Source of the DNA: a bacterium | Lineage (GTDB): Bacteria; Patescibacteriota; Minisyncoccia; UBA6257; UBA9933 | Length of the DNA: 64,000 bases | Assembly: GCA_021796335.1 (NCBI GenBank) | Contig: JAJYHZ010000001.1 | Location: 331,870-395,869 of the forward strand | Direction: 5' to 3' | Part shown: in pieces, positions 3,121 to 61,248 of the stretch | Layout of the letters: each line of letters opens with the position of its first letter | Numbering within the stretch: position 1 is the first letter of the stretch | The notes under the pieces: generated by a model | Database searches by the model: none | The model's input: the letters and a program-made list of their open reading frames with translations, nothing else | What the model was told of the DNA's origin: nothing | Translations under genes and position numbers: made by a program

Positions 3121-3128
3121 TATAATTT

Positions 3129-4208: not shown

Positions 4209-4372
4209 AACTATTTACTCGGACCAATTTCAAATAAAATTAATGGAGTCAAACCCAATAATATCCCTAAAAATCCCCAAATGGAAATTTTTTCTTTGAA
4301 ATAAGCCACGTCAATTAAAACAATAGTATAAATTTTACTCTAAATTATTTGTTTAAAAAAATCACATAATTG

Positions 4373-4443
4373 AGCCCCCTGTCAGAATCGAACTGACGTA
4401 TGCGGTTTACGATACCGCTATTCTGCCACTGAATTAAAGGGGC
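4373..4443 (-). tRNA. tRNA-Thr (anticodon CGU)
   Basis: Cloverleaf folded by hand: acceptor GCCCCUU/AGGGGGC, D-stem AUUC/GAAU, anticodon stem GCGGU/ACCGC with loop AUCGUAA, T-arm GUCAG-UUCGAUU-CUGAC; CCA not encoded. Confidence 0.6.
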
Positions 4444-4461
4444 GTAATAATTAAAAAATGC

Positions 4462-5766: not shown

Positions 5767-5845
5767 ATTTTTATAAATTTAATATTAAGCCAATCAAATC
5801 AAAAAATAAACCCCGAACCAGGTAAGAATATTAAAAATTGGCGTT

Positions 5846-5885
5846 AAAAAGCCGGGCCCTTTTAATTATGCCCGGCTTGTTTTGC
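5846..5885 (-). terminator. Rho-independent terminator (bidirectional hairpin AGCCGGGC/GCCCGGCU) downstream of the GGDEF gene
   Basis: 8-bp GC stem flanked by an A-run upstream and a T-run downstream. Confidence 0.5.
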
Positions 5886-5907
5886 CTCCATTTTCCTCTC
5901 CTTCTCC

Positions 5908-6708: not shown

Positions 6709-6892
6709 CTCCCCCTCTCATATTTCTCCGATTTTCGGAGATTTTTATATAATAACATATTAATATTAAATTTGTCAAGTTTTTAAGATTTTAATGTGTT
6801 GCTTTATTAATTCTCTTAAATTCTATATAATTTTTCTATCAATTTCGTATACGCAACTAAAAACTGATAACTAATCGCTAAAAACCATTTCC

Positions 6893-8002: not shown

Positions 8003-8054
8003 TCGAATTTTTAATTTGAAAAAACTCTTCAAGAATGTATAATTTTTAAGTATT

Positions 8055-8127
8055 TGCCGGATCATCTAATGGTAGGATAGCGGACTTTGAATCCGTTCAT
8101 CTTGGTTCGAATCCAAGTCCGGCAGCA
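8055..8127 (+). tRNA. tRNA-Gln (anticodon UUG)
   Basis: Hand fold: U1-A72 acceptor (UGCCGGA/UCCGGCA), anticodon stem GCGGA/UCCGU with loop CUUUGAA, T-arm CUUGG-UUCGAAU-CCAAG, discriminator G. Confidence 0.65.
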
Positions 8128-8143
8128 GCTATAAAAAAAGGGG

Positions 8144-8290
8144 CGCCGCCGAAGGACGCCCCGAAATCATTCTGGCTAAGGGTGCATCAGTCGAGGACCC
8201 TTTGCTTTGAAACAAAAGGGTACCTCTGATTAAACAACTCCACCAGACGGCGCAGGGTTATTGCGTACTCCCACGCCTTCTTATTTTAAT
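8144..8290. other. GC-rich structured-looking intergenic segment after tRNA-Gln (hairpin GGGGCG...CGCCCC, then GGGUGCAUCAGUCGAGGACCC); candidate small ncRNA of unknown class
   Basis: Local GC well above the surrounding AT-rich intergenic DNA; several stable hairpins; no ORF. Confidence 0.2.
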
Positions 8291-8483
8291 TGCTGGGAAA
8301 ATAATACAACATTTATTTTATTTTGTAAATAGTTGTCAATGAACTCTAACGAAATATTTTTATTAAAAAAATTTTTACAACTTTTTTCTTCCTAATATAA
8401 ATAAAGTATTAATTTCGCCACGAACTGCTGAATTCCAAGGGATTTTTTTAGTTAGGGACATTGATTAGGGTTCCGCCTCGTTC

Positions 8484-8507
8484 AAAAAAAGGGGGCTTAT
8501 GCCCCCC
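8484..8507 (-). terminator. Rho-independent terminator (GGGGGC-UUAU-GCCCCC + U7)
   Basis: Perfect 6-bp GC stem followed on the minus strand by TTTTTTT; lies just 3' of the 8527..8721 gene. Confidence 0.6.
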
Positions 8508-8526
8508 ACTCTTAAATTCAATCTCA

Positions 8527-8721
8527 TTAATATTTTTTTGGCCTCTTGAGTATAATTATTGCAGTCAGGCTGTCATTATTAAAAAAAGTGCCACACACTT
8601 CCCACCCTTCAGCACCCAGCTTATTTAATTCTTTAACCAAATTCAAATCCGCACAGAATCCATCCATTATCTTATATTCCCACATACAAAACACCTCCTG
8701 TAAAAGTTCTACCCCACGCAT
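8527..8721 (-). CDS. Small DUF4177-like protein (likely true start at internal Met, MWEYKI..., ~8685)
   Basis: ~52-aa core YKI...LNKLGAEGWEV resembling DUF4177; own terminator. Confidence 0.45.
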   Translation of the reverse strand: MRGVELLQEVFCMWEYKIMDGFCADLNLVKELNKLGAEGWEVCGTFFNNDSLTAIIILKRPKKY

Positions 8722-8905
8722 AAATGGACTGTTAACTTTATATAATAAAAACTAATCGAGGTCAATTTATTTCAAGGTTTATTCAATAAGTTTCCAACAC
8801 TGAACCATAAGTTCAACAATTCGACTCACTTTGCTCTCTTATGGCTATAGCCATAAAATCAAAAACCTTAAATTAAAGTTAAAGCAAAATTATATTTTCT
8901 TAAAT

Positions 8906-9631
8906 CTATTTTACGATAAATCGTCCGTACATTCCCTTGCTTGCGTGATCATAATACTGGCAAAGATAATAATAAGTGCCGGAAGACGGAGCCTGAAAAG
9001 TAACCGAACTTTCGGGATAAAGAGATTTTTGTGCATCTTCTGATTGGCGGGGAGGAAGAACGGGTATGCCGACAAAATAATTCGACATCCCCATCATGGA
9101 AAGCACCGGATAGGGCGGAGCATCGGGTGTTATTACAACTCCATGATTCATCCCGCTGCCATAATCCATGTTAATAAAATTAATAGTAATGGTGGATCCG
9201 GCCGGAACAATAATAGTCGGGTTTACAAGACCGGCAACTTCAAAAGTTGTATCGGGAAAATCCGGCTGAACTGCAGCCATAGCAATTTCTATCCGATCGC
9301 CGGTAAAGGTCGCCTGATTTTTGGCTTTATCTATATGTGCGGAATCGGCTGTTTGTTTAAGAAGCTGCATCGCATCGACAAAACTTATTTGGCGCCCTTC
9401 TCGTTGATTATATTGATTATAATTGCCCATCATTCCGCCCAAACCTCCCGCCATCCCGTCGGCTCCAACATAATTCTGTCCTTGATTGGCTGTTATTTGG
9501 TCACTGGCAGGAATTTTTTGCCCGGAGGATAAGAATGATTGCCCATTTTTATTATAAAAAACCACTCCGTATGCGACTAAAATGCCAATCACGGCAATTC
9601 CGGTTCCAGTGATTATGTATCTTTTTTTCAT
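8906..9631 (-). CDS. Membrane-anchored cupredoxin-like (type-1 copper) domain protein
   Basis: N-terminal TM; C-terminal ligands H(GVVITPD)...C-x4-H-x4-M (YYLCQYYDHASKGMYG), typical of plastocyanin/azurin-like folds. Confidence 0.5.
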   Translation of the reverse strand: MKKRYIITGTGIAVIGILVAYGVVFYNKNGQSFLSSGQKIPASDQITANQGQNYVGADGMAGGLGGMMGNYNQYNQREGRQISFVDAMQLLKQTADSAHIDKAKNQATFTGDRIEIAMAAVQPDFPDTTFEVAGLVNPTIIVPAGSTITINFINMDYGSGMNHGVVITPDAPPYPVLSMMGMSNYFVGIPVLPPRQSEDAQKSLYPESSVTFQAPSSGTYYYLCQYYDHASKGMYGRFIVK

Positions 9632-48117: not shown

Positions 48118-48765
48118 TTAAAAAAATCTAGAAAGAGATTTTGTAATTACATCTATATTATTTTTTTGGCAATATGATTTTATATCGTTTTCAAAACACT
48201 CAGATTTTGTTTTTATGTTTTTTATAGGAGGCGGAATTAAATCGATGCTATAAACAAAATAAATAGAACCATCTTTGCCATCTAATTGCTTAATTCCTTT
48301 ATTTATCATTTCTTTTGCTTTGCTAATTAATCGTTTATAATTCTCTTCATCATTTTCCAAAAAAAACTCAAACGATCCTGCTGAGCTACCCTCAAGTATG
48401 CCACCCTGCTCCCGCATCTTTTTAATTAAATTTTTCTTAACATCACTATTATTTAAATTTTTTACTTCAATATATTTTTTAGTTTTTTCTAAAAAAATAT
48501 CTGGTCCTGAATTTTTATCAGATAAAAAAACTGGCTTATCACTTCCATATTCAGCGGCAACTAAGATTTCCGCCAATTTATCAATTAATTGATTAATATT
48601 TTTTATATTTTCAAATTTATTACGAAGTAAATTTAATTGATCCTCATTTAAATGGCTTAAATTTTTATTAACTCTATTTATCCAATTCTGATACATGCTT
48701 TGGTCATCCCGATTTATCCAATCTTTAGCAGCTTGACATTTGTTTAACACATTTAAAATATCCAT
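48118..48765 (-). CDS. Hypothetical protein, very AT-rich gene at the left edge of the accessory island
   Basis: 215-aa ORF with GC visibly below neighbours; its start codon abuts the recombinase-remnant frame. Confidence 0.4.
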   Translation of the reverse strand: MDILNVLNKCQAAKDWINRDDQSMYQNWINRVNKNLSHLNEDQLNLLRNKFENIKNINQLIDKLAEILVAAEYGSDKPVFLSDKNSGPDIFLEKTKKYIEVKNLNNSDVKKNLIKKMREQGGILEGSSAGSFEFFLENDEENYKRLISKAKEMINKGIKQLDGKDGSIYFVYSIDLIPPPIKNIKTKSECFENDIKSYCQKNNIDVITKSLSRFF

Positions 48766-48767
48766 AA

Positions 48768-48971
48768 AATATTCTTTATCAAATCAAACTTGAAACTATT
48801 TTTGAAAATAAAGATGACGCGGAAACCGAAATTATAAAGGTTATCACCTCTAAAATATCAGATAATATCGGACAATTTATAGAATTTCTGATAATTTGTC
48901 CTTCTCTGCGGTGTGTATTGGACGAAGTTCGAATGTATTTCGGACAAAATCCGCAGGATTTTGACGAATGA
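48768..48971 (+). pseudogene. Remnant of a large serine recombinase 3' end (no start; homologous to the C-terminus of recombinase 59509..61248)
   Basis: Open frame ...ETIFENKDDAETEIIKVITSKISDNIGQFIEFLIICPSL... aligns with ...ETIFENKNKAETEIIKVITSKISDNIGQFMEFLVNCPSL... of recombinase 2. Confidence 0.5.
48790..48911 (+). repeat. Direct repeat R1a (122 bp, ~88% identical to R1b at 61016-61137)
   Basis: Hand alignment; an identical 43-bp core AAATTATAAAGGTTATCACCTCTAAAATATCAGATAATATCGG. Confidence 0.7.
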
Positions 48972-49118
48972 CACTTGCGCCTCGGCCGCGCTCGACAAGC
49001 TCGCGCGGGGCAAAACCCAAAAATTTCCCATCATTTTTATTTGCGGCTCCCCCCACACCCCCGCCGCGAAGCGGAAAATTTGAAAGGAAGGAAATTTTTG
49101 GTTTTGTCGCCACCACTT
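48907..49118 (-). repeat. Inverted repeat X-A (212 bp; reverse complement of X-B 53758-53970; 1 substitution + 1 G-run indel)
   Basis: Base-by-base comparison of the reverse complement. Confidence 0.8.
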
Positions 49119-49157
49119 CACTCCTCCAAAAAGGCTTATAAGTCATATTAGCATTTT

Positions 49158-49413
49158 TGCCGGTTTTACGCCCGCCTTTTCTCCGTCGTTTGCGTCGGCC
49201 CGAGGCGCTCCCGTCTCCGCGTTTGGTGGTAGTTCGGTAATCCGCTCACACTTTGCAAGCACCTCGCACTGGCCGCTCACATCCGTTCGCGATGCCTGCT
49301 CGGTACTTGCTTCGTGTTCGCTCGGTGGCTTCGGCGGTGTCAGTGGTAGCTCTTTGTGCTTGCCCACCCGCCCAGTGCACGCACAAGCCCGTCCGCTGAC
49401 GCGGGCGGCTCCC
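49158..49413 (-). other. GC-rich (~60% GC) 255-bp non-coding element immediately 3' of the nucleotidyltransferase stop, with short internal direct repeats (CCGCTCACA x2, GCTCGGT x2, GTTCGC x2) and inverted segments; candidate structured RNA or decayed foreign fragment
   Basis: Sharp GC jump versus flanks; no plus-strand ORF; the only ORF (49143..49490, minus) is low-complexity and overlaps the NTase 3' end. Confidence 0.3.
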
Positions 49414-49416
49414 TTA

Positions 49417-50184
49417 TTACCAAATTGCTTGATTCCAATTTCCTGCCAAGGTTGTTTGTGCCAAGTTCTTAATTTTTTGTTTCTCGGCAAGCGTTAATTC
49501 ACCCGACACTTCATTACTTTGGTTTGAGGGGTCATTGATAACTTTATTTTCAAAATCATTGACTAAATAGTTCATTATTTTTACAAAATTATTCGCTGGG
49601 CTTGAGCCGATCAACCCAGTGCCTTTCAGAGCTTCAATAACTGAGAGTTCAAGATAGAAGGAAGGGAAATCTAAATTGTGTAATTTTCTCCAAATTTTTA
49701 TAGCCTTAATATCAGATACTCTACCAGAATTTTTTACAAGATTGATATGCGCATCAATGTTGGTTTTTGTCCAAGTTTTTGCTTTTCTTTTCCAAATGGA
49801 GTGGTCGAGTCCGAGAATATGATGTTTTACACCTGCAACAACATCAATTTTTAATCCGGTATGATCAATTCCAACAGATACATTTTGTTCTCGCGCTGTA
49901 TATCCAGCCCCATTAAACCTATTTCGTAGAGTGTTATAAACATTCTCAAGTGTATTGCAAGTGCTTACTGATTGGTCAAGTGAAATAAATATATCAATAT
50001 CTGTCGTACCTGTGATAGCTGTTCCTTTAGCAATCGATCCAGAAAGTTTTAGGATATATGAATGCCCATTTGCCCACGCGTGAATGTGCGGTTTTAATTC
50101 GTCAATTTTATTCTGAACAACATATGTAATGTTCGGAGTGTGTTGGGCAACAATTTGTGTTATGTATTGGTCGTTCTCGTTCAT
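49417..50184 (-). CDS. cGAS/DncV-like (SMODS/CD-NTase-like) Pol-beta nucleotidyltransferase
   Basis: GS(49-50)...TDIDIF (D62, D64) and a third acidic strand KIDVV (D114), plus the C-terminal helix AIKIWRKLHNLDFPSFYLELSVIEAL typical of cGAS/DncV-like enzymes; 255 aa. Confidence 0.6.
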   Translation of the reverse strand: MNENDQYITQIVAQHTPNITYVVQNKIDELKPHIHAWANGHSYILKLSGSIAKGTAITGTTDIDIFISLDQSVSTCNTLENVYNTLRNRFNGAGYTAREQNVSVGIDHTGLKIDVVAGVKHHILGLDHSIWKRKAKTWTKTNIDAHINLVKNSGRVSDIKAIKIWRKLHNLDFPSFYLELSVIEALKGTGLIGSSPANNFVKIMNYLVNDFENKVINDPSNQSNEVSGELTLAEKQKIKNLAQTTLAGNWNQAIW

Positions 50185-50187
50185 AAA

Positions 50188-50694
50188 TTATTTTTCGTAA
50201 CTAGTCGTAATCATTGCCGTTACAATGTCATTAAGAAGTCTCCCACGGAAGTTTGTGACAGCAGTATGTCTTTTGCCATCAAGATTTTTCATTTGCTCAT
50301 CGGGAATTCTGCCTTTTTCATATGGGGCGTACACAATCAGCGCGCATGTATCTGGCTTTTTTTCAAGAATTTGAGCAATATCACTTGCCCAGTCATGCCA
50401 GAATACAAGATAGACGGATGCTTCTTCTGCTTTCCCTATATCTTTCGCGTCTGTAATTTCAAAAATATTTTTTGTTCGAAAAAGTTTGGAGTCATTGAGC
50501 AGACTTCGCAGACTACTTACATTGTCTCCTTTGGCAAAAACTGCAATTTTTCTTTTCGCAAGCCCATTTCCAAGACGATAAAGAGCAGGAAATACTCCTC
50601 TAGTCCACAGGATAAATCCCCATATAATTCCTACCACCAAAACGATAGTTTCGATTACGCCTATAAAAGCAAGTATTTCTAACATTTTTGACAT
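50188..50694 (-). CDS. Small TM protein (N-terminal ~27-aa hydrophobic segment + ~125-aa soluble domain) encoded 3 bp upstream of the NTase; candidate effector/sensor
   Basis: 168-aa ORF, translationally coupled spacing; no recognised domain by eye. Confidence 0.4.
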   Translation of the reverse strand: MSKMLEILAFIGVIETIVLVVGIIWGFILWTRGVFPALYRLGNGLAKRKIAVFAKGDNVSSLRSLLNDSKLFRTKNIFEITDAKDIGKAEEASVYLVFWHDWASDIAQILEKKPDTCALIVYAPYEKGRIPDEQMKNLDGKRHTAVTNFRGRLLNDIVTAMITTSYEK

Positions 50695-50720
50695 AAATTT
50701 TTTGTGGATAACCCGTACTT

Positions 50721-50740
50721 GTTTAGGTTATGTTTAGGTA
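50721..50740. promoter_or_regulatory. Tandem direct repeat GTTTAGGT-TAT-GTTTAGGT in the 59-bp divergent promoter region between the TM/NTase operon and the LexA-like gene; candidate operator
   Basis: Exact 8-bp direct repeats; a TATACT -10-like hexamer lies 7 nt before the LexA ATG. Confidence 0.3.
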
Positions 50741-50753
50741 GTATACTCTAACT

Positions 50754-51380
50754 ATGGAAAAGAAGTCAAGCATGGGAACAGGCAAACCATCAAAGCGACA
50801 AGCGGAGATACTGCAGTTTGCCAGAGAATATCGTAGGGAAAATGGCTACTCGCCGGCATTGACCGAAATTGCGAAGCATTTTGGTATATCTATTCCAACA
50901 GTTCACGAGCACATTTCACATTTGCGAGAGAAGAACCTGCTTACAGCTGAAAGAGGTAAAAAACGATCTATTCAAGCACTTCGCGATCACAAGTCGCCGG
51001 TCGTAGAAATACCACTCATGGGATTTATTGCAGCGGGTGGTCCGATTGAGGCAATTAGAGAACCGGAGCCGATAGAAGTTCCGCGGAGTATGCTCTCTTC
51101 CGGTGCAAATTTTTACGCACTCAAGGTTACGGGACGAAGCATGATTGAAGAGGGCATTTCTGACGGCGACATTGTGATTGTACGCGAACAGCAAAGTGTT
51201 GATGACGGAGAAAAAGCCGTTGCGTATATGCCGGACAGAAATGAAGTTACGCTTAAAAAAATTTATAGAGAGAAGGATCGCGTTAAACTTGTGCCCGCCA
51301 ACAAATACATGAAGCCTTTTTACGAAACGAATGTGGAAATACAAGGAAAGGTCGTGGGGGTTCTTAGGAAAGAATTTTAA
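50754..51380 (+). CDS. LexA-like repressor (N-terminal wHTH + C-terminal S24 peptidase, Ser/Lys dyad)
   Basis: N-terminal KRQAEILQFAREYRRENGYSPALTEIAKHFGISIPTVHEHISHLREKNLL; C-terminal GRSMIEEGISDGDIVIV...VTLKKI. Confidence 0.8.
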   Translation: MEKKSSMGTGKPSKRQAEILQFAREYRRENGYSPALTEIAKHFGISIPTVHEHISHLREKNLLTAERGKKRSIQALRDHKSPVVEIPLMGFIAAGGPIEAIREPEPIEVPRSMLSSGANFYALKVTGRSMIEEGISDGDIVIVREQQSVDDGEKAVAYMPDRNEVTLKKIYREKDRVKLVPANKYMKPFYETNVEIQGKVVGVLRKEF

Positions 51381-51383
51381 TAA

Positions 51384-52973
51384 ATGATAAAAAATTTTAT
51401 GTCTTTAGTATCTATACCAGAAGCATCAAAATGGGCTACCGATTATCTTGAAAAAGAGGTATCCCCGACAAATATTTCTTACCTTGTGCAATATGGCAAG
51501 GTAAAAAAGCATGGCGAGAACGGCTCCACCTTAGTTGATCTTGGTGATCTTAAAAAATACTACGAATCTTACAATGGAAAACGCGAGATAAGTTGGAAAA
51601 AAAACCTCGGTAGTGATTTAAACTGGACACTTTCATTTGATAACTTACGAGAGAAAGATACAACCAAGCATGTACATAGGCTCCATCCATACAAAGGTAA
51701 ATACATCCCCCAGCTCGTTGAGTATTTTATAGATACACACACGGACGATTTCAAAAAGGAGGCATATTTTAAATCTGGCGATATTATTCTTGATCCATTT
51801 TTGGGTTCAGGAACAACACTTATTCAAGCACTGGAAATGGGTATCCATTCCGTTGGGATAGATGTTTCGGAATTTAATTGCATGATTGCCAGTTGTAAAG
51901 CGACACACTACAACAATGAGTATTTGCAAAAAGCGATCAAAAAAATGCTCTCTGCGCTAGACACATTTGAGCATGATAATAAAATCCAAGAATTTGAAAC
52001 TGAGCTTTTGGCTGAGCTTGCTAAGTTTAATAATGTCCATTTCCCTGGTTACGATTTTAAGTACAAACTAAATCAGGGAAATTTTAACGAAAAGAAATTT
52101 TCTACCGAGAAAGAGCGCGAGTTTTTGCCTGTATACCAAAAATTGCTCAAAAAGCACGCAATCAAACTAAAACAAGATAAATCAGACTCTTTCCTCGATA
52201 TCTGGTTTATGGACAATGTTCGCCGAGAGATAGATCATGTCTTTCAGACGATCAAACAAGAAAAAGATGTTAAGACCCGCAAAATCCTTGCGCTTATTTT
52301 GAGTCGAACAATCAGGTCATGTCGAGCAACAACGCATAGCGATTTGGCAACGCTCAAGGAGCCACAGCTTACGACATACTACTGCTATAAACACAAGAAA
52401 ATATGCAAACCACTTTTCTCGATTAAGACAATGCTCAATCGCTATGCGTTTGATACATTGAGTCGAATCCGTGAATTTAACACCTTACGCAAGCCGGTTC
52501 ACTACTCCGCAATAACTGGTGACTCTCGAACTGTAGATATTTTTGAGAAAGTAGAAAAACAGAATCCAGAATTTTCTAAAATTCTTAAGAAACAAAAAAT
52601 AGCAGGTATTTTTTGTTCACCTCCTTATGTTGGACAAATTGACTATCACGAACAGCACGCCTACGCTTATGACTTACTTGGATTTAAACGAAAAGATGAT
52701 TTGGAAATAGGCCCATTGTATAAAGGGCAAGGACAAGAAGCTCGTCGATCGTACGCGCAAGGAATTGCCGATGTGTTAAATAATTGTAAACAGTATCTCA
52801 AAGCAGATTTTGATATTTTCCTTGTAGCAAATGACAAATATAATCTTTATCCAAAAATTGCAGAAAAGTCAGGTATGAAGATTGTAAATCAATTCAAGCG
52901 CCCAGTGTTAAATCGTACGGAACGCGATCGTAATCCTTACTCAGAAATAATTTTCCACTTTAAATCAAAATAA
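51384..52973 (+). CDS. DNA methyltransferase, alpha-class amino-MTase (motif I DPFLGSGTT N-terminal, motif IV SPPY C-terminal), N4C/N6A-type
   Basis: FxGxG AdoMet motif ILDPFLGSGTTLIQA and catalytic IFCSPPY ~280 aa later. Confidence 0.75.
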   Translation: MIKNFMSLVSIPEASKWATDYLEKEVSPTNISYLVQYGKVKKHGENGSTLVDLGDLKKYYESYNGKREISWKKNLGSDLNWTLSFDNLREKDTTKHVHRLHPYKGKYIPQLVEYFIDTHTDDFKKEAYFKSGDIILDPFLGSGTTLIQALEMGIHSVGIDVSEFNCMIASCKATHYNNEYLQKAIKKMLSALDTFEHDNKIQEFETELLAELAKFNNVHFPGYDFKYKLNQGNFNEKKFSTEKEREFLPVYQKLLKKHAIKLKQDKSDSFLDIWFMDNVRREIDHVFQTIKQEKDVKTRKILALILSRTIRSCRATTHSDLATLKEPQLTTYYCYKHKKICKPLFSIKTMLNRYAFDTLSRIREFNTLRKPVHYSAITGDSRTVDIFEKVEKQNPEFSKILKKQKIAGIFCSPPYVGQIDYHEQHAYAYDLLGFKRKDDLEIGPLYKGQGQEARRSYAQGIADVLNNCKQYLKADFDIFLVANDKYNLYPKIAEKSGMKIVNQFKRPVLNRTERDRNPYSEIIFHFKSK

Positions 52974-52976
52974 TTT

Positions 52977-53759
52977 ATGGCTTTATCTAAAGAACAAGTA
53001 AATAGTGTTGAAGAAGTTTTGAAAGCAAGTTTGCGTAATAAGTTTCAAAACTATAAACCCGAACCGGCATCAATGCCTTTTCATACACGACTACTCGGCA
53101 AGGATAGACTTGCTTTATATTCTTTCATTCATTCCCTCAACACAAACTTCGGCACAAGTATTTTTGAGCCGGTCGGTCTTGCTCTGGCTCAGAAAAACTT
53201 CAAAATGGCCGTTTCGCAAGCTACAGCTGGAAATCAGATCAGTTCCGCCGCCCAAGCAGAAATTCAGAAGATTATTGATGGTCTTACAACGGCAACGAGT
53301 ACCCCTAATAAAAAAGCTGAAATTGAAAGAATAAGAAAAGTTTGTCAGACAGGAGAGATGATTAAAGTAAAACCAACAAAGGTTGATTTAATGTTTGAGT
53401 CAAAAGACGGTGCATTTTATTTGTTTGATATTAAGACTGCAAAACCAAATGCCGGCGGATTCAAAGAGTTTAAACGCACCCTGCTTGAGTGGGTTGCTGT
53501 TGTTTTGGCAAATAAACCAGATGCGAATATAAATACTTTTATTGCAATTCCTTACAATCCTTACGAGCCAGAACCCTATACTCGATGGACAATGCGAGGA
53601 ATGCTTGATCTTGAAAATGAGCTTAAAGTAGCAGACGAATTTTGGGACTTTCTCGGAGGCAAGAATACTTACAAGGACTTACTCGATTGTTTCGAGCGTG
53701 TAGGTATTGAGTTGAGAGATGAAATTGATGACTACTTTAAGCGCTTCAACAAGAAATAA
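52977..53759 (+). CDS. Type II restriction endonuclease-like, PD-(D/E)XK (TdeIII-like)
   Basis: 4 bp after the MTase; PD...D-I-K (VDLMFESKDGAFYLFDIKTAKPN); size/pattern of small Type IIP REases. Confidence 0.55.
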   Translation: MALSKEQVNSVEEVLKASLRNKFQNYKPEPASMPFHTRLLGKDRLALYSFIHSLNTNFGTSIFEPVGLALAQKNFKMAVSQATAGNQISSAAQAEIQKIIDGLTTATSTPNKKAEIERIRKVCQTGEMIKVKPTKVDLMFESKDGAFYLFDIKTAKPNAGGFKEFKRTLLEWVAVVLANKPDANINTFIAIPYNPYEPEPYTRWTMRGMLDLENELKVADEFWDFLGGKNTYKDLLDCFERVGIELRDEIDDYFKRFNKK

Positions 53760-53970
53760 GTGGCGGCGACAAAACCAAAAATTTCCTTCCTTTCAAATTT
53801 TCCGCTTCGCGGCGGGGGGTGTGGGGGGAGCCGCAAATAAAAATGATGGGAAATTTTTGGGTTTTGCCCCGCGCGAGCTTGTCGAGCGCGGCCGAGGCGC
53901 AAGTGTCATTCGTCAAAATCCTGCGGATTTTGTCCGAAATACATTCGAACTTCGTCCAATACACACCGCA
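53758..53970 (+). repeat. Inverted repeat X-B (213 bp; partner of X-A), starting at the REase stop codon
   Basis: See X-A. Confidence 0.8.
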
Positions 53971-54085
53971 AAAATTGAAAATCGGAATTGGAAGCCGAAA
54001 TGGGGTCGCGCCGCAGGCGCGACACAAACGCATTCCCGCCAAAAATTCCCGAATCCAAAAGGTTTTTCCACGCTCCGCGTGGCTC
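53966..54085 (+). repeat. Inverted repeat Y-B (120 bp; identical reverse-complement partner Y-C at 55487-55606), immediately upstream of recombinase 1
   Basis: Base-by-base comparison. Confidence 0.8.
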
Positions 54086-54106: not shown

Positions 54107-55699
54107 ATGAATAATCAAACCAAAAAGTTTTTCATATATACTCGCAAGTCTACGGACGACAAAGACAGACAGGTTCGTAGTATTTCCGACCAACTTTCGG
54201 AATTGAAAGAGTTAGCAAGGAAAGAAGATTTAGATATTGTTGATGTCTTTGTCGAAAAGCAGACCGCCAAAATACCAGGCCGTCCGGTGTTTGGTGAAAT
54301 GTTGGAGCGAATGGAAAAAGGTGAAGCAACTGGTATTTTGGCGTGGCATCCCGATAGACTTGCTCGCAACTCGGTAGATGGAGGAAAAATCATCTACCTC
54401 ATTGATACTGGTGTAATTTCTGAAATGAAATTCCCAACTTTTTGGTTTGATCCGACACCGCAAGGCAAATTCATGCTTTCAATCGCTTTTTCGCAATCCA
54501 AATATTATGTGGACAATTTGTCGGAGAATATTAAGCGTGGTCATCGTAACAAAGTGAAGGACGGAATATGGCCTCAAATGTCGCCGCTTGGCTATGTGAA
54601 CAAAAACAAGCGCATTGTGCCCAACCCCGAAATTGCTCCACTTATTAAAAAGACATTTGAGGCATATGCAACAGGTTCTTTCACTTTGCGCGAACTCCGC
54701 GACAAATTTAACGCACTTGGATTGAAGCGAAAAAGCGGAAAGGAACTTGCGGTGTCGAATTATCAAAAACTTCTCAAAAATCCTATTTACACTGGCTTAA
54801 TGCGGTATAACGGAGAGATTTTTGAGGGTAAGCACGAACCGATTATTTCAAAGAAACTTTTTGATTCTGTTCAGGAAGTGATGATGAGAAAATCTAAGCC
54901 GAAATCTCGCGGACTGAAACCATATTTGTATCGCGGATTTTTCCGTTGCGGAGAATGTGGTTGCTTCATCACCACCGAAACGCAGAAAGGTCATAACTAT
55001 TTACGATGTACGAAACGGAAAAATCTTTGCTCACAAAGATACACGCGAGAAGAAATCATCACTTCCGAAATTCAAAAGGAAATCAAAAAAGTTTCTTTGC
55101 CACTCGATTGGGCTAAATGGATGTTGGCGGAAAACGAAAAGGACAAATCAGTAGAAGCCCAATCGTCTACGCTTTTTGCCGACAAAACAAAAGCCGATAT
55201 TTCTCTTTTGGATTCTAAAATAGAGAAGCTGATGAACGCTTATTTAGAGAGCGCACTTTCACTAGAGGAATATCGGGACGCTAAAAGTGTGTTGGTCAGT
55301 CAAAAACAGCTTCTCAAAGAGAAATTATCGGCTTTTGAGCAAAAAGCGAATAATCGGTTCGAACTTACCGAAAAGTTTTTGAAATACAATATAGAATTGG
55401 CAAACGAGGGAACAAATGAAGAAAAACTTCATTTGTTCAAAAAAGTCGGTTCGAACTTTCAGATTAAGGATCGAACCGTCTTTTTTGAGCCACGCGGAGC
55501 GTGGAAAAACCTTTTGGATTCGGGAATTTTTGGCGGGAATGCGTTTGTGTCGCGCCTGCGGCGCGACCCCATTTCGGCTTCCAATTCCGATTTTCAATTT
55601 TTGCGGAGAGTGGTAGACGACGTTCGCACCTATTGGCAAACAACGCCTAACCGCGTATTTATCCCTAATCTTACACTAGAAACAGCAAAAATCAATTGA
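54107..55699 (+). CDS. Large serine recombinase 1 (resolvase/invertase N-terminal domain + recombinase domain + zinc ribbon + coiled coil)
   Basis: YTRKSTDDKDRQ (catalytic Ser region), ILAWHPDRLARN, C-x2-C...C zinc ribbon FRCGECGCFITT...YLRCTKRK. The ORF-track N-terminal extension (53819-54106) is read-through of repeat X/Y; the C-terminus overlaps Y-C. Confidence 0.8.
   Translation: MNNQTKKFFIYTRKSTDDKDRQVRSISDQLSELKELARKEDLDIVDVFVEKQTAKIPGRPVFGEMLERMEKGEATGILAWHPDRLARNSVDGGKIIYLIDTGVISEMKFPTFWFDPTPQGKFMLSIAFSQSKYYVDNLSENIKRGHRNKVKDGIWPQMSPLGYVNKNKRIVPNPEIAPLIKKTFEAYATGSFTLRELRDKFNALGLKRKSGKELAVSNYQKLLKNPIYTGLMRYNGEIFEGKHEPIISKKLFDSVQEVMMRKSKPKSRGLKPYLYRGFFRCGECGCFITTETQKGHNYLRCTKRKNLCSQRYTREEIITSEIQKEIKKVSLPLDWAKWMLAENEKDKSVEAQSSTLFADKTKADISLLDSKIEKLMNAYLESALSLEEYRDAKSVLVSQKQLLKEKLSAFEQKANNRFELTEKFLKYNIELANEGTNEEKLHLFKKVGSNFQIKDRTVFFEPRGAWKNLLDSGIFGGNAFVSRLRRDPISASNSDFQFLRRVVDDVRTYWQTTPNRVFIPNLTLETAKIN
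55487..55606 (-). repeat. Inverted repeat Y-C (120 bp) overlapping the recombinase 1 3' end
   Basis: See Y-B. Confidence 0.8.
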
Positions 55700-56999: not shown

Positions 57000-57620
57000 C
57001 TATTTAGCAGTTTCAAAAATCTTTTTAACTAATTCTTTTCTCGCATAAAACGCCCGGCTTGTTGAGCCATGGCCGGCTCCTTTTGTCCTTGCTTGTATCC
57101 ACTTGCCGTCTCTGCCAGTTAAACTGCTGAATCCCTTTTTGATCAATTTATTTCTTATAAAATCGTAATCAGCTTTTATCTCTTTGATTAATTCGTCAGT
57201 TTCAACAAAATCCAAACTAACAACTTTTATTATTTTAGCCTCTTGAGAATTTTTGCCATTCCACATAACCGCGCAAAAAATCATTGACTTTAATTTCGCC
57301 CAACAGTGGCTTTCAAAAAATTCGTGTTTCTTTAATTCTTCCGGATTAATCATTGTTATCGCCATTGTTTCTTTTGGCACAAGTTCGTTTTTAACATAGC
57401 GAAACGCCACTGATTTTAATTCATATGAAAGTCCGTTCGGCGCTTTTGAAACATTTGTTTGAAGTCCGGCTAACCGTTCCAAAATTAAGCCCTTCCAGCC
57501 TTTATTTTGTTTGCCGGTTTCATAAGTTGTTATTTTGTATTGCAGGGCTAATTTTCTTAAATCTTTGCCAATATATTTTTTAAGATTTTTAATTGCGTTT
57601 GCTCTCGTAACGATTTTCAT
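57000..57620 (-). CDS. MutH/Sau3AI/DpnII-family restriction endonuclease (GATC-type)
   Basis: KGWKGLILERLAGL...GLSYELKSV matches the MutH/Sau3AI core. Confidence 0.7.
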   Translation of the reverse strand: MKIVTRANAIKNLKKYIGKDLRKLALQYKITTYETGKQNKGWKGLILERLAGLQTNVSKAPNGLSYELKSVAFRYVKNELVPKETMAITMINPEELKKHEFFESHCWAKLKSMIFCAVMWNGKNSQEAKIIKVVSLDFVETDELIKEIKADYDFIRNKLIKKGFSSLTGRDGKWIQARTKGAGHGSTSRAFYARKELVKKIFETAK

Positions 57621-57623
57621 ATT

Positions 57624-58436
57624 TTAATTTGTGAATAATTTATTTTTTAAATTTTTATCCAAATATTCAAACCTTTTTATTGATAAATCTAAATAATTTT
57701 TATTATTATCAATGCCGATAAATTTTCTGCCTAATAAATTTGCCATTATTCCGGTTGTTGAGCTTCCAGTAAAAGGATCAATGATCAAATCCCCTTGATT
57801 AGTGCTTGCCAATATAATTCTTTTTAGCAAATCTTCCGGTTTTTGTGTTGGATGTTTGCCAAATTTTTTTTCTATCGGCTTAGGCGTACCAATTGCCCAA
57901 ACAGATCTCATTTGCTTGTTTGGTTTTTTAATAAAATCTTCCGGCCAATTGCCGTTTTTCATTTTATCGTAATTAAAAGTATGTTTTGCTTTTTTATCTT
58001 TCCTCGCCCATATCAACGTTTCGTGGCTGGCAGTAAAAAATCTGCAACTTAAATTTGGCGAAGCGCTGGGCTTAAACCATGAAACATCATTGAGGATATG
58101 GAATTTAGAAACCTGCAAAGCAAAACCGCAAATATAAATTGAGTGGTAAGTTCCGCTAATCCAAATTGTGCCATGAGGTTTTAAAACTCTTTTACATTCT
58201 TGGATCCAGTCCAAATGAAAATCAAAATCTTTCTTCAATCCATTGCTTCGATCCCATTTGCCTTTATCAACGCTGACCATTTTCCCAGCATGCACCGTAA
58301 AGCCGCCGTTAGATAAAAAATAGGGCGGATCGGCAAAAATCATATCAACCGAATTTTCAGGAAGCGTTTTTAATAGTTCTAAGCTATCAGTATTGTATAA
58401 GGTAAAATCGCCTTTTTTATAATATGGCTTGTGCAT
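57624..58436 (-). CDS. Beta-class DNA N6-adenine/N4-cytosine methyltransferase (DPPY before FxGxG), cognate of the DpnII-like REase
   Basis: FADPPYF ... IIDPFTGSSTTG. Confidence 0.8.
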   Translation of the reverse strand: MHKPYYKKGDFTLYNTDSLELLKTLPENSVDMIFADPPYFLSNGGFTVHAGKMVSVDKGKWDRSNGLKKDFDFHLDWIQECKRVLKPHGTIWISGTYHSIYICGFALQVSKFHILNDVSWFKPSASPNLSCRFFTASHETLIWARKDKKAKHTFNYDKMKNGNWPEDFIKKPNKQMRSVWAIGTPKPIEKKFGKHPTQKPEDLLKRIILASTNQGDLIIDPFTGSSTTGIMANLLGRKFIGIDNNKNYLDLSIKRFEYLDKNLKNKLFTN

Positions 58437-59392: not shown

Positions 59393-59508
59393 TAAACAAC
59401 ATCATTTCACGAGTCAAACTTGACTCGCAAACAATGCTACAAACTCTCAAAATAAGCCTATTGCGCTATTTTCAGCAAAGTAATAATATCGTCGTAATAA
59501 CAAACTTT

Positions 59509-61248
59509 ATGGACACCGAAACCAAGCTCAAATACATCTCCTACACCCGAAAAAGCACTGAAAGCGAGGACAGGCAGATTTTATCGTTAGATGATCAAGA
59601 AAAAGAATTGAAGGTTATTGAAAAACGCAATAATTTGAATATCGTCCAAAGATTTGCCGGAACTTCCAACGGCGAAAGCCAATCCGCCCATAAAAGAGGC
59701 AGGCCGATATTTAATTTCATAATGGGTCAGATCGATAAAGGCAAAGCCAACGCTTTATTAGTTTGGCATCCCAACAGATTAGCCAGAAACGCTTATGACG
59801 GAGGTTTGATTATAACTTTAATGGATGAAAATAAGTTAATTGAAGTAAAAACCGCCCATAGGACTTATTCCAATACTCCGGAGGATAAATTTATGCTCCA
59901 ATTGGAATTCGGCATGGCCAAGAAATCATCGGACGACAACAGCGTTGCCGTAAAAAGAGGGTTAAAAACAAAACTGGAAATGGGTTGGTATCCCAGTAGA
60001 GCGCCGTTAGGATATTTGAATTCAATAACCAAAGAAAAAGGATCAAATGAAATAATCAAAGATCCTGAAAGGTTTGAATTAATAAAAAGAATGTGGCAAA
60101 TGATGATTACAGGAAATTATACTCCGCCTCAAATATTACAAATTGCCAACAAGGAATGGAATTTGAAAACCAGACCGACCAAGAAATACGCAGGGCTAAA
60201 ATCTTTATCCCGAAGCGCGATTTATAAAATCTTCACTAATCCTTTTTATTACGGATTTTTTGAGTATCACAATAATTTATACAAAGGCAATCACGAACCA
60301 ATGATAACCGAGGAGGAATTTGACCGCGTGCAAAAATTCTTAGGCAGACGAGGAAATCCCAGAGCCATAACAAAACGTTTCGCTTTTACCGGATTAATGA
60401 AATGCGGAAATTGCGGAGCCATGATAACCGCCGAGGAGAAAACCAAAAGGCAAAAGAACGGCAATGTCCACCATTATGTTTATTACAGGTGTACCAAAAG
60501 AAAAGACGAACATTGCCCTGAAAAAGCTATAAGGTTAGACGAATTAAATAATCAAATAAACCAGATAATCAACGCCTTAACAATCTCTGACGAATTCAGA
60601 AATTGGGCCATTAAATACCTGCACGAAATAAGAAAAACCCAAGCTAAGGCTAATGAAAAAGGAATTGAAAACAAGCAAAAGGAATTAACCAGAATTATAA
60701 AGCAATTAGACAGCCTTTTACTCAAATACACGGCTCCGGAAAATTCAGACGGAAATCTTATCTCAAGCGACGAATATCAAGCTCTCAAAACCCGCCTTAT
60801 TAAGCAAAAATTAGCCCTTGAAAGCGATTTAACGGATCAAGGAAAGCAAATCAACGAATGGGTTGAATTAAGCGAAAGAACGTTCAATTTTGCCAGATAC
60901 GCGAGCATCCATTTCAACAACGGAGATATGGAAACCAAAAGAGCTATTTTCGCATGCTTAGGTTCTCACCTTATTATAAAAAATCAAAAACTGAGCATTG
61001 ATCTGCATCCAATGTTTGAAACTATTTTTGAAAATAAGAATAAAGCAGAAACTGAAATTATAAAGGTTATCACCTCTAAAATATCAGATAATATCGGGCA
61101 ATTTATGGAATTTTTGGTAAATTGTCCTTCGTTGCGGAGGCGGAAGGATTCGAACCTTCGAGAGGATTTCTCCCCTAACATCTTAGCAGGATGCTGCTTT
61201 AAACCACTCAGCCACGCCTCCACACTAATTGAGTTTAGGAAATATTAA
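59509..61248 (+). CDS. Large serine recombinase 2 (start MDTETKLKYISYTRKST...; C-terminal boundary uncertain because the ORF reads through the antisense tRNA-Ser)
   Basis: YTRKSTESEDRQ, LLVWHPNRLARN, zinc ribbon MKCGNCGAM...YYRCTKRKDEHC, C-terminal coiled coil; colinear with recombinase 1. Confidence 0.8.
   Translation: MDTETKLKYISYTRKSTESEDRQILSLDDQEKELKVIEKRNNLNIVQRFAGTSNGESQSAHKRGRPIFNFIMGQIDKGKANALLVWHPNRLARNAYDGGLIITLMDENKLIEVKTAHRTYSNTPEDKFMLQLEFGMAKKSSDDNSVAVKRGLKTKLEMGWYPSRAPLGYLNSITKEKGSNEIIKDPERFELIKRMWQMMITGNYTPPQILQIANKEWNLKTRPTKKYAGLKSLSRSAIYKIFTNPFYYGFFEYHNNLYKGNHEPMITEEEFDRVQKFLGRRGNPRAITKRFAFTGLMKCGNCGAMITAEEKTKRQKNGNVHHYVYYRCTKRKDEHCPEKAIRLDELNNQINQIINALTISDEFRNWAIKYLHEIRKTQAKANEKGIENKQKELTRIIKQLDSLLLKYTAPENSDGNLISSDEYQALKTRLIKQKLALESDLTDQGKQINEWVELSERTFNFARYASIHFNNGDMETKRAIFACLGSHLIIKNQKLSIDLHPMFETIFENKNKAETEIIKVITSKISDNIGQFMEFLVNCPSLRRRKDSNLREDFSPNILAGCCFKPLSHASTLIEFRKY
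61016..61137 (+). repeat. Direct repeat R1b (122 bp; partner of R1a), the 3' end of recombinase 2, abutting the tRNA-Ser 3' end
   Basis: See R1a. Confidence 0.7.
61135..61221 (-). tRNA. tRNA-Ser (anticodon GCU), long variable arm
   Basis: Hand fold: acceptor GGAGGCG/CGCCUCC, D-stem GCU/AGC, anticodon stem GCAUC/GAUGU with loop CUGCUAA, variable arm AGGGGA-GAAA-UCCUCU, T-arm GAAGG-UUCGAAU-CCUUC, discriminator G. Confidence 0.7.

Follow-up and report, generated by a model that had tools for sequence, protein, structure and literature searches.

A Type I CBASS with a Transmembrane REC-like Effector on a Patescibacteria Defense Island, and Its Apparent Joint Control with a Restriction–Modification Operon by a Mobile LexA

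Introduction

Among the CBASS categories of Millman et al. 2020 (cited in bioRxiv 10.1101/2022.04.27.489752 and PMC12480259) is type I with a 1TM effector, a two-gene operon of a cyclase and its effector, and our search of the literature found no experimental characterization of this effector class. On the side of the cyclase, the closest solved structures to the enzyme described here come from the CdnC/CdnD–NucC CBASS of E. coli MS115-1 and P. aeruginosa (PDB 6p80, 6p82), whose effector, the nuclease NucC, is activated by cyclic tri-AMP (cA3) (PMC11229360). On the side of the effector, the most similar described protein is Cam2, a bioinformatic prediction that combines an N-terminal transmembrane (TM) helix with a C-terminal REC-fold domain and for which cA3 binding, cA3 activation, and membrane disruption are predicted (Hoikkala, Graham and White 2024, PMC11229360). 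Cam1 and Csx23 are likewise small, with a TM segment at the N terminus and, in the cytosol, a sensor of cyclic oligoadenylates that has a CARF fold in Cam1 and a distinct fold in Csx23, and both bind cA4 (PMC10808066, PMC11014256). Membrane depolarization has been shown for Cam1 and proposed for Csx23 and Cam2 (PMC10808066, PMC11014256, PMC11229360). As for regulation, CapH/CapP (an XRE-type HTH repressor and a separate ImmA/IrrE-type metallopeptidase) and CapW (a WYL protein) place a repressor gene beside the CBASS promoter, and its inactivation by DNA damage is expected (bioRxiv 10.1101/2022.04.27.489752; PMC9122588).

Here, we describe a locus from a Patescibacteria (CPR) genome whose cyclase and effector are both already catalogued, so that the system itself only adds a CPR example, and which stands out more for a mobile LexA repressor with apparent joint control of CBASS and restriction–modification (R-M). 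The locus has the two-gene operon of type I CBASS with 1TM, and differs from it by its CPR host, its effector-first order, and the LexA gene at the regulator position. Its effector shares the described architecture of Cam2, belongs to one sequence family with a protein encoded right after a cmr operon, and is, like Cam2, linked to NucC-type cA3 signaling, but it is coupled to a CD-NTase, whereas Cam2 is coupled to Cas10. Compared with CdnC/CdnD, the cyclase is 45–65 residues shorter and only 17–19% identical; most of its relatives have NucC as their effector, whereas here a membrane protein takes the place of the nuclease and HORMA/TRIP13 are absent. Finally, a repressor gene again adjoins the CBASS promoter and its inactivation by DNA damage would again be expected, yet the regulator is a single canonical LexA, which is neither the XRE-type repressor and metallopeptidase of CapH/CapP nor a WYL protein like CapW, and which also heads an R-M operon.

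Results

The window, that is, the whole 64-kb stretch of DNA that was analyzed, contains at a tRNA-Ser an island of ~12 kb that carries the CBASS pair, the LexA, two R-M systems, and two serine recombinases (table 1). Locating the repeats, the R-M genes, and the recombinases bore out the mobile defense island between inverted repeats that the first-pass annotation had proposed. The inverted repeat A/B is 97% identical between 48896-49062 and 53815-53981 and extends to 48896-49118 and 53758-53981, and copies B and C are 94% identical between 53938-54085 and 55487-55634. In the R-M operon headed by LexA, each R-M gene starts 3 bp after the preceding gene, and the methyltransferase and the endonuclease match Pfam N6_N4_Mtase (2.5e-16) and RE_TdeIII (2.6e-95) as well as PADLOC MTase_II (2.5e-226) and REase_II (7e-20). 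The second R-M system matches Pfam MutH (4.8e-11) and N6_N4_Mtase (8.3e-60). Between the inverted repeats, the CBASS pair is otherwise accompanied only by a GC-rich noncoding element, LexA, and R-M genes, without Cap2/Cap3 or HORMA/TRIP13.

Table 1. Features of the island and their positions in the window
Position	Strand	Feature	Basis
48820..48912	+	att-like ~93-nt direct repeat, left copy bounding the ~12-kb island	~92% identical to 61046-61138
48896..49118	.	Repeat copy A at the left end of the cassette with CBASS, LexA, and R-M; opposite in orientation to B	
49126..49416	-	GC-rich (64%) noncoding element, conserved, directly after the cyclase stop	
49417..50184	-	CD-NTase, SMODS-type cyclase, short clade, 255 aa	PADLOC, PDB profile, AF2/Foldseek, catalytic residues
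50188..50694	-	Effector, 168 aa: single TM helix at the N terminus, then a REC-like (flavodoxin-fold) sensor domain; CBASS "1TM"/Cam2-type	
50695..50753	.	Shared control region, overlapping divergent promoters around palindromic AGTATACT	Promoter prediction and sequence reading
50721..50739	+	Candidate LexA operator, direct repeat GTTTAGGT-N3-GTTTAGGT, 11-bp period	Repeat statistics, locus scan
50754..51380	+	LexA, canonical, wHTH and S24 autopeptidase, 208 aa, heads the LexA-MTase-REase operon	
51384..53759	+	Type II R-M: N6_N4 methyltransferase (51384-52973) and TdeIII-family endonuclease (52977-53759)	Pfam, PADLOC
53758..54085	.	Repeat copy B, full unit; left part matches A, right part C; junction ...CCGCA	
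54107..55699	+	Large serine recombinase 1; repeat copy C (55487-55634) in its 3' end	Pfam Resolvase, Recombinase, Zn_ribbon_recom
57000..58436	-	Second R-M: MutH-like endonuclease (57000-57620) and N6_N4 methyltransferase (57624-58436)	Pfam
59434..61248	+	Large serine recombinase 2, at the island's right edge	Pfam Resolvase, Recombinase, Zn_ribbon_recom
61046..61138	+	att-like direct repeat, right copy, abuts the 3' end of tRNA-Ser(GCU) 61134-61221 (-)	

Within the pair, the membrane effector comes first and the nucleotidyltransferase lies downstream of it, and the ORF coordinates agree with the 3-bp gap (50185-50187) and the divergent LexA across 59 bp noted initially. The cyclase matches the PADLOC Cyclase profile PDLC00803 over its full length (2.6e-77, positions 2-253 of 253), which indicates that its short size is also that of a known family, and its score against Pfam SMODS is 25.7 bits, 0.8 bits under the gathering cutoff of 26.5. 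A PDB profile search retrieved CdnC (6p80) at 1.1e-10, and a Foldseek search with the AF2 model (pLDDT 91) placed CdnC and CdnD on top (E 1e-11, TM 0.73-0.75), with the first 14 matches all being bacterial CD-NTases. The remainder of the top 50 consisted of more CD-NTases (including CdnB, CdnE, and CdnG), NF90/NF45, and CCA-adding enzymes, without any ANT or MNT enzyme. As anticipated from the motifs read by eye in the first-pass annotation, the GS, the DxD, the third acidic residue, and the C-terminal helix (KIWRKL..LDFPSFYLELSVIEAL) are all present, and G49-S50, D62-x-D64, and D114 are invariant among 26 homologues. By homology and predicted fold, the 255-aa protein is shown to be a CD-NTase whose GS...DxD...D active site is intact and whose enzymatic product we infer below. 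The cGAS/DncV-like identity first assigned to it is upheld by the PADLOC, PDB profile, and Foldseek matches, and these same results rule out an ANT, Lnu, or MNT enzyme.

The partner of the cyclase had been considered unlike any known CBASS effector class and the whole module possibly reduced or novel, two views that have to be abandoned. Indeed, the 168-aa protein matches the PADLOC "1TM" profile PDLC00664 (2.3e-62, positions 12-173 of 174) and the "C3a59" profile PDLC01057 (6.8e-54), and since it belongs to a catalogued 1TM family and the cyclase to PDLC00803, the module is an ordinary type I CBASS, neither reduced nor novel. The single N-terminal hydrophobic stretch described earlier was recovered, Kyte-Doolittle 19-residue windows exceeding 1.6 only at window starts 1-20, and it is followed by a C-terminal REC-fold domain. 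A family member (P0372; 35% identity, 1e-26) is encoded directly after a cmr operon (Cas10/Cmr2-Cmr6; cmr1-6), from which the effector is, at the level of sequence, homologous to type III CRISPR-associated TM-REC proteins. In other members, the sensor domain is fused to TIR (P0370) or stands behind a nonmembrane N-terminal domain without Pfam match (P0361). The effector profile retrieved nothing among PDB sequences at E up to 10 and revealed no sequence link to Cam1 or Csx23, and a scan of viral contigs found no relatives of the effector.

The two genes are also co-conserved, as the first-pass annotation had supposed: the effector gene precedes that of the cyclase in 8/8 closest genome loci and in all eight of the contigs that carry a 94%-identical cyclase (P0002), and 46/73 metagenome loci have, after the effector, a cyclase-like ORF that the profile of the cyclase picks up. 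In sampled loci without a match to that profile, other SMODS types follow the effector instead, and the same effector family is also found after longer SMODS and SMODS+AGS_C cyclases. Conversely, when the loci of related cyclases are considered, one downstream protein cluster recurs in 55/80 of them, and its three tested representatives are NucC (2.9e-88 to 8.2e-100).

The LexA carries both expected Pfam domains, LexA_DNA_bind (1.3e-9) and Peptidase_S24 (2e-26), and aligns over its full length with T. maritima LexA (3k2z, 1.4e-35) and at ~1e-22 with E. coli LexA. Its A93-G94 cleavage site, S129 (GRSM), and K168 (TLKK) align with A84-G85, S119, and K156 of E. coli and are intact, in keeping with the LexA-type S24 repressor initially recognized. 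Its control region, kept in L001 and L003-L005, combines a predicted sigma-70-like CBASS promoter on the minus strand (TTGACT 50769-50764, 18-nt spacer, TATACT 50745-50740; 10/12 consensus positions) with a candidate lexA promoter on the plus strand, read straight off the sequence (TTGTTT 50719-50724, 17-nt spacer, TATACT 50742-50747). The candidate operator begins directly after the CBASS -10 hexamer, and covers the -35 and spacer of the lexA promoter together with +1 to +20 of the overlapping CBASS promoter. It occurs once in the 64-kb window, and an exact repeat of 9 nt with a period of 11, as seen here, arose in 1/2000 shuffles. When 1.6 Mb of loci were scanned with up to two mismatches, all 21 matches fell in the short control region adjoining a lexA of the window's subgroup, including a copy at a contig edge (L118) and those of two R-M-only loci (L164 and L165). 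More broadly, direct repeats of 11-12-bp period, specific to each LexA subgroup, were found in or beside TTGAC-N17/18-TATACT promoters in 14/15 representative intergenic regions.

A LexA-like gene is adjacent to the pair in the window, in L001-L007, and in L011. Among 68 informative metagenome effector loci, LexA-like genes flank 31, seven of which have them co-directional and directly upstream of the effector, and none was detected in the other 37. The three-gene LexA-MTase-REase operon is found in L001, L003, L004, and L164-L166, and in the last three, where no CBASS lies in the vicinity, the operon is headed by a LexA homologue 87-89% identical to that of the window. The position of LexA is taken in non-CPR relatives by an HTH_3 protein and a HExxH protein, which recalls CapH/CapP. 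In one of these loci (L123), the 341-aa partner of the HTH protein shows only an HExxH motif and no Pfam match, so that "CapP-like" is to be taken as a lead rather than a result.

As for the GC-rich 3' element, the stretch 49158-49416 reaches 63.7% G+C versus 36-38% in the genes of the CBASS pair. Copies lie within ~10 nt after the cyclase stop in L001, L084, L085, and L167-L174, where L167 has it as an inverted pair, and in L104 a copy lies at a greater distance downstream, beyond a different CBASS operon. Rfam searches of 44-58 kb, of the whole window, and of 48780-49450 gave no credible match for this element or the repeats: only three far-subthreshold matches were obtained in the element's region (E 0.13-2.1), one of which, short, lies within the element (Acido-Lenti-1, 18 bits vs a 37-bit cutoff). 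Single-sequence folding gave z of -1.4 (sense) and -0.5 (antisense), and alifold on 2 and 9 copies kept a hairpin with no usable covariation, the covariation term of -0.18 being due to the near identity of the copies. No match to phage genomes was found by blastn. Separately, a lost NucC-like effector hidden downstream of the cyclase was considered and rejected, as tblastn of the relatives' post-cyclase genes against 48700-49500 recovered no remnant.

Discussion

Taken together, the explanation that we consider best, and reasonably probable, is that of a type I CBASS carried as island cargo, with a cA3-triggered membrane effector and under LexA control. In such a system, phage infection would lead the cyclase to make a cyclic oligoadenylate, with cA3 as the product toward which we lean, because the nearest solved relatives are trinucleotide synthases and because the effector family also serves type III CRISPR, which signals through cyclic oligoadenylates. 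Starting from the TM plus REC-like architecture of the effector, we infer a ligand and an activity for it: the signal would bind the cytosolic REC-like domain, with an invariant Arg, Trp, Tyr, and Asp cluster at the C-terminal ends of strands as a candidate binding site, and the effector would then probably oligomerize, its N-terminal helices breaching or depolarizing the membrane and thereby aborting the infection.

That the pair might be a housekeeping signaling module rather than an immune system strikes us as very improbable: if our literature search turned up no phage assay, whether on this clade or on CPR CBASS at large, both proteins are nonetheless full-length matches to defense-system profiles, the pair has an R-M system on either side within an integrative island, effectors are exchanged between NucC and the TM-REC protein, and the patchy cross-phylum spread at 70-90% identity is typical of mobile defense genes. 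The nature of the signal calls for more caution, since the products of CD-NTases cannot be read from sequence and the effector family is also paired with SMODS and SMODS+AGS_C cyclases of greater length, so that a cyclic dinucleotide or another oligonucleotide, sensed by the same REC-like domain, is an unlikely but far from negligible possibility. Against it stand the 55 of 80 cyclase relatives followed by the cluster whose tested representatives are NucC, the position of CdnC and CdnD as nearest structures, and the presence of the effector family in a type III-B CRISPR locus, a kind of locus that makes only oligoadenylates (PMC11229360). Given that related cyclases mostly pair with the cA3-activated NucC, cA3 is somewhat favored as the signal of the window cyclase.

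With regard to regulation, the island's own LexA probably binds GTTTAGGT-N3-GTTTAGGT and holds down CBASS transcription. RecA on ssDNA, arising from DNA damage or phage replication, would prompt the self-cleavage of LexA at Ala93-Gly94, upon which the expression of the CBASS pair and of the LexA-MTase-REase operon would rise together. Alternatively, LexA could control only its own LexA-MTase-REase operon, in the manner of an R-M C-protein or element repressor, with CBASS having landed beside it under an independent, unregulated promoter. We consider this rather unlikely, even though the close homologues and the GTTTAGGT repeat found at R-M operons without CBASS imply that the juxtaposition with CBASS could be secondary, and even though in CPR loci a methyltransferase of varying type usually comes next after LexA. 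Indeed, it sits uneasily with the seven loci where the effector and cyclase come directly after a LexA-like gene, with no R-M gene between, with the association of LexA-like genes and effector across at least three different cyclase types, with the location of the repeats inside the promoter facing the CBASS genes in most subgroups, and with the start of the window operator right after the CBASS -10 hexamer. The GC-rich element raises a comparable question, as its conservation in more than ten loci, in the closest relatives immediately behind the stop codon of the cyclase, its presence downstream of a CBASS whose cyclase differs, and the retention of a central ~80-nt hairpin with a few compensatory changes could fit a functional noncoding RNA of CBASS, for example a regulator or an infection sensor. 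This reading is nevertheless improbable in light of the Rfam results, the ordinary folding energy, and the covariation term, and the element is absent from most other effector–cyclase loci (L002-L008), while its inverted pair in L167 and its adjoining an att-like repeat fit the end of a mobile element. As for the first-pass annotation's proposal of a 3' element belonging to the module, the element is conserved, but a functional role in the system finds no support in Rfam, folding, or covariation.

The reading that we retain for LexA, on comparative sequence evidence, is that this mobile repressor appears to control CBASS together with the neighboring R-M operon. The parallel with CapH/CapP initially drawn holds in part: the regulatory link is supported by comparison, but its CBASS-specificity is not, as the LexA heads CBASS-less R-M operons and the operator travels with lexA, which makes it a regulator of the island and not of CBASS alone. 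By analogy, the window LexA may nevertheless act like CapH/CapP, though outside that family. In E. coli, a preprint reports that defense systems are negatively correlated with recA expression, so that SOS induction of defense is not a general rule. It is in this context that we put forward, tentatively and with some doubt, that a mobile family of canonical LexA could serve in CPR as a dedicated damage switch of defense cassettes, co-inducing an abortive-infection CBASS and R-M through subgroup-specific tandem-repeat operators located in divergent promoters that overlap, and that the REC fold could be a new class of cA3 receptor.

As a matter of fact, the module is ordinary, a type I CBASS whose kind had been catalogued before, here in a Patescibacteria (CPR) genome, and the significance of the locus lies elsewhere. 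It links the CBASS "1TM" class to the "Cam2" family of type III CRISPR and to NucC-type cyclases, from which the REC-fold domain is predicted to be a possible cA3 receptor. Besides, the locus-encoded canonical LexA, whose candidate operators are recognizable, may represent a third damage-responsive control of CBASS, alongside CapH/CapP and CapW, which here also governs an R-M operon. If this were true, entire defense islands could respond to DNA damage sensed by RecA, and this in organisms whose genomes are very small.

A type I CBASS made up of known, catalogued components

The source is a genome of the Patescibacteria (CPR), and the closest named relatives all come from Patescibacteria, Paceibacterota, Microgenomates and similar groups. 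The three-ORF arrangement described in the first-pass annotation, including its 3-bp and 59-bp spacings, was recovered exactly by ORF calling (see table), but the suggestion that it forms a novel or reduced CBASS-like system is unsupported, since both proteins fall in catalogued families: what the genes encode is a type I CBASS. What we say of it beyond homology, fold and synteny, we infer throughout.

The cyclase matches the PADLOC oligonucleotide-cyclase model PDLC00803 over all 253 model positions (2.6e-77) and Pfam SMODS with 25.7 bits, slightly below the threshold of 26.5, which is probably why its public label is only "nucleotidyltransferase". A PDB search with a profile of 26 homologues, in which G49-S50, D62, D64 and D114 are invariant, returned CdnC of E. 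coli MS115-1 and other CD-NTases. The structures nearest to its AlphaFold model (pLDDT 91) are CdnC and P. aeruginosa CdnD, followed by CdnB, CdnE and CdnG CD-NTases, NF90/NF45 and CCA-adding enzymes, and the top 50 structural matches contain no ANT, Lnu or MNT fold. Profiles, PDB and fold thus bear out the earlier reading as a cGAS/DncV-like enzyme rather than an ANT, Lnu or MNT protein, and the 255-aa protein belongs to a known clade of short CD-NTases.

The partner, in which the single N-terminal hydrophobic segment noticed earlier was found again, had been thought unlike any known CBASS effector class; this was wrong, as it matches the PADLOC CBASS model "Effector 1TM" (2.3e-62). It also matches two accessory models of PADLOC, "C3a59, trans-membrane" (6.8e-54) and "Mem_04", a membrane protein from a type III operon (1.1e-9). 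In its AlphaFold model (pLDDT 85), one long helix spans residues 2-46 and five beta-alpha units come after it. In flavodoxin-like folds, the ligand site lies at the C-terminal strand ends, and it is to the C-terminal ends of the strands that the invariant residues of the effector (F53, N58, W99, D101, Y122-A-P-Y125 and T147-N-x-R-G-R152) map in the alignment and the model. The family, with 284 representatives at 50% identity, includes P0372, a protein 35% identical to the window effector (1e-26) whose gene lies directly 3' of the genes for Cmr1, Cas10/Cmr2, Cmr3, Cmr4, Cmr5 and Cmr6. A TM helix joined to a REC domain in type III CRISPR loci was named Cam2 and predicted to be cA3-activated by Hoikkala, Graham and White (PMC11229360), and the window effector has the same architecture, a likeness judged by the published description of Cam2. 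We count it among our most useful results that the CBASS "1TM" effector class can be equated with the Cam2-type TM-REC family. The sensor domain is modular: in place of the TM helix, the REC-like domain stands behind a TIR_2 domain in P0370 (L081:327-1229) and behind a non-membrane N-terminal domain without Pfam hit in P0361, which by eye looks nucleoside-deoxyribosyltransferase-like or TIR-like.

Coordinates of the features in the window
Feature	Position	Strand	Remark
Effector ORF, 168 aa	50188-50694	-	ORF calling
Nucleotidyltransferase ORF, 255 aa	49417-50184	-	3 bp downstream of the 168-aa ORF
LexA ORF, 208 aa	50754-51380	+	59-bp gap to the 168-aa ORF
CBASS promoter, predicted	50769-50740	-	TTGACT-18-TATACT, 10/12 consensus positions; -10 belongs to palindrome AGTATACT
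lexA -10	50742-50747	+	From same palindrome AGTATACT; 6 nt before lexA ATG
Candidate LexA operator	50721-50739		GTTTAGGT-TAT-GTTTAGGT, directly beside the palindrome
GC-rich element	49158-49416		63.7% G+C
Direct repeat, ~93 nt, left copy	48820-48912		Island boundary
Direct repeat, ~93 nt, right copy	61046-61138		Abuts tRNA-Ser(GCU) 3' end
Repeat A	48896-49118		Inverted relative to B; matches left part of B
Repeat B, full unit	53758-54085		
Repeat C	55487-55634		Inverted relative to B; matches right part of B
ORF, 215 aa	48118-48765	-	Just beyond left island boundary
ORF, 339 aa	55965-56984	-	Between recombinase 1 and second R-M

Co-conservation and the likely signal

The co-conservation of the gene pair is evident: L001-L008, the eight closest-matching genome loci (cyclase identity 73-99%), all have the effector immediately upstream of the cyclase, as do 8/8 contigs encoding the 94%-identical cyclase P0002. 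The more distant cyclases (37-65% identical) are followed instead, in 55 of the 80 genome loci, by a single downstream protein cluster, of which the three representatives tested are NucC (PADLOC PDLC00745, 2.9e-88 to 8.2e-100; Pfam DUF6602), a nuclease activated by cA3 (PMC11229360); these loci include the CPR loci L009-L011, with a cyclase 64-65% identical. Conversely, the effector family also precedes other SMODS types, namely enzymes of 321-360 aa and SMODS+AGS_C enzymes of 435-447 aa. Because effectors are swapped within the cyclase clade, because CdnC and CdnD, whose product is reportedly cyclic tri-AMP, are the nearest structures, and because a member of the effector family is also encoded in a type III CRISPR locus, the signal is probably a cyclic oligoadenylate, with cA3 favoured. 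The link of the TM-REC family to NucC-type signalling, in which cA3 is the probable messenger, is the second of our most useful results.

Some loci carry further genes. In L003 (8772-9287) and L004 (8773-9288), a 171-aa protein encoded about 4 nt after the cyclase matches PADLOC "Effector: Exonuclease" (2.2e-14) and, weakly, the Pfam Rv2179c-like 3'-5' exoribonuclease family, and could add either a third component or another effector to the system. In a Rhodospirillales MAG, two CBASS systems adjoin each other (L064:4407-9460): an HTH protein, a 232-aa protein, the TM-REC effector, a 360-aa cyclase and an E2-like protein make up one, while the other consists of a short cyclase and NucC. In several loci of different lineages (L002:7143-7489, L086, L101:5735-5986 and L123:5753-5998), the regulator and effector genes are separated by a small DUF2188 gene (about 81 aa; Pfam 2.3e-20 in L123), which the window lacks.

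A mobile island and its GC-rich element

The direct-repeat copies are about 92% identical and enclose about 12 kb containing the CBASS, the lexA-methyltransferase-endonuclease genes, serine recombinase 1, a 339-aa protein without assigned function, a MutH-like endonuclease with its methyltransferase, a DUF5655 protein and serine recombinase 2. The inverted repeats reported around the module are present: the 4.6-kb CBASS/LexA/R-M segment is bounded by copies of about 225 nt, and recombinase 1 by copies of 148 nt, one of them within its own 3' coding end. The three repeat copies have one core in common, which ends in CCGCA at the junction within B, an ending that tRNA-Ser shows at its 3' terminus. 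Such a pattern is consistent with att-like sites from nested integrations of serine-recombinase elements, and inversion of either segment is conceivable. The 215-aa ORF (weak SspG match, 3e-4) and the 339-aa ORF, both without Pfam hit, lie in AT-rich stretches of 28-29% G+C.

The GC-rich 3' element signalled earlier is genuine, against 36-38% G+C in the adjoining genes, and conserved: copies stand directly 3' of the cyclase stop in L001, L084, L085 and L167-L174, in L167 as two copies of opposite orientation with about 100 nt between them (1529-1818, plus strand; 1919-2142, minus strand), and L104 has a copy downstream of another kind of CBASS operon. An origin as a remnant of the genes found 3' of the cyclase in relatives was rejected, no remnant being found. 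An Rfam search of the element gave no credible match, its folding energy is not unusual, and its copies are too alike for covariation to be assessed; the end of a mobile element and an RNA are equally likely.

LexA and the shared control region

The divergent gene, read earlier as a LexA-type repressor, is on sequence grounds a canonical lexA: its product gives a full-length match to T. maritima LexA (1.4e-35) and also matches E. coli LexA (about 1e-22), A93-G94 falling on the cleavage site of the E. coli protein and S129 and K168 on its catalytic dyad. It is followed by genes for an N6_N4 methyltransferase and a TdeIII-family endonuclease, each gap being 3 bp, so that the three form a single operon. 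Between L001 and the window, cyclase and effector are 99% and methyltransferase and endonuclease 87-92% identical, when the LexA proteins (L001:6804-7430 and 50754-51380) are only 72% identical, a mosaic that suggests recombination within the cassette.

The effector-cyclase pair has a LexA-like gene beside it both in the window and in L001-L007, and LexA-like genes accompany at least three cyclase types. Among 80 metagenome loci found via the effector, 68 had sufficient upstream sequence, and 31 of these have a LexA-like gene (24 divergent, 7 co-directional directly upstream of the effector); a locally built LexA profile found none in L012-L080, the 69 genome loci from outside the CPR. At the position of LexA, L123, L122 and L064 have an HTH_3 protein and an HExxH-motif protein, a CapH/CapP-like arrangement. 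In L011, a co-directional LexA-like gene precedes the cyclase-NucC pair in a prophage-like region (3089-9514: LexA-like gene, 74-aa ORF, cyclase, NucC) whose neighbours look, by eye, terminase-like and ParB-type-methyltransferase-like; apparently, a CPR prophage carries this CBASS, and the LexA-like protein may serve as its repressor.

The 59-bp intergenic region is near-identical in L001 and L003-L005. The position of the plus-strand -10 suggests a nearly leaderless lexA transcript, and the lexA-methyltransferase-endonuclease transcript may accordingly lack a leader or nearly so (50742-50756). The candidate operator is unique within the 64-kb window, its 9-nt repeat with an 11-bp period was reached by 1 of 2,000 shuffles, and all 21 sites with at most two mismatches in 1.6 Mb of fetched loci fall in the short control region adjoining this subgroup's lexA. 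Other LexA subgroups have their own direct repeats of 6-10 nt (TTTCGAT, TGTTCTA, TTTCAAA, TTTCTAA, TCGAAA; period 11-12 bp), usually within the -35/-10 spacer of the CBASS-facing promoter; LexA boxes in the form of direct repeats have precedents in other bacteria, among them GTTC-N7-GTTC in Alphaproteobacteria (PMC8565304). As the repeats co-vary with LexA subgroup, there is good comparative evidence that the LexA proteins bind these candidate sites.

On this basis, the proposed control of CBASS by LexA stands in part: adjacency and the subgroup repeats in CBASS-facing promoters argue for it, but not for a role confined to CBASS. In L164-L166, a LexA 87-89% identical to that of the window heads the same operon with no CBASS nearby, L164 and L165 sharing the candidate operator, and the LexA subfamily outnumbers the cyclase, with more than 120 clusters at least 78% identical, the named ones from Gracilibacteria, Elusimicrobiota and Taylorbacteria. 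Elsewhere, LexA heads C5-methyltransferase or Vsr-Dcm operons. By eye, only the L096 LexA being profile-tested, L096 (56-1067) and L128 (1283-3403) have a LexA-like gene at the head of an operon for a Vsr-like protein (133 aa) and a C5-methyltransferase, which runs divergently from a CBASS of effector, cyclase and third gene; with L002 and L005, they suggest that LexA heads several methyltransferase operon types. Given the loci with R-M alone, the wider abundance and the other operons, the description that suits this LexA best is a mobile regulator for defence cassettes; R-M is its steadiest partner, and the CBASS often shares or joins its control region. Our literature search, of incomplete coverage, found no published description of a LexA encoded with CBASS. 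The third of our most useful results is that CPR bacteria appear to have CBASS and R-M cassettes under the local control of a mobile canonical LexA.
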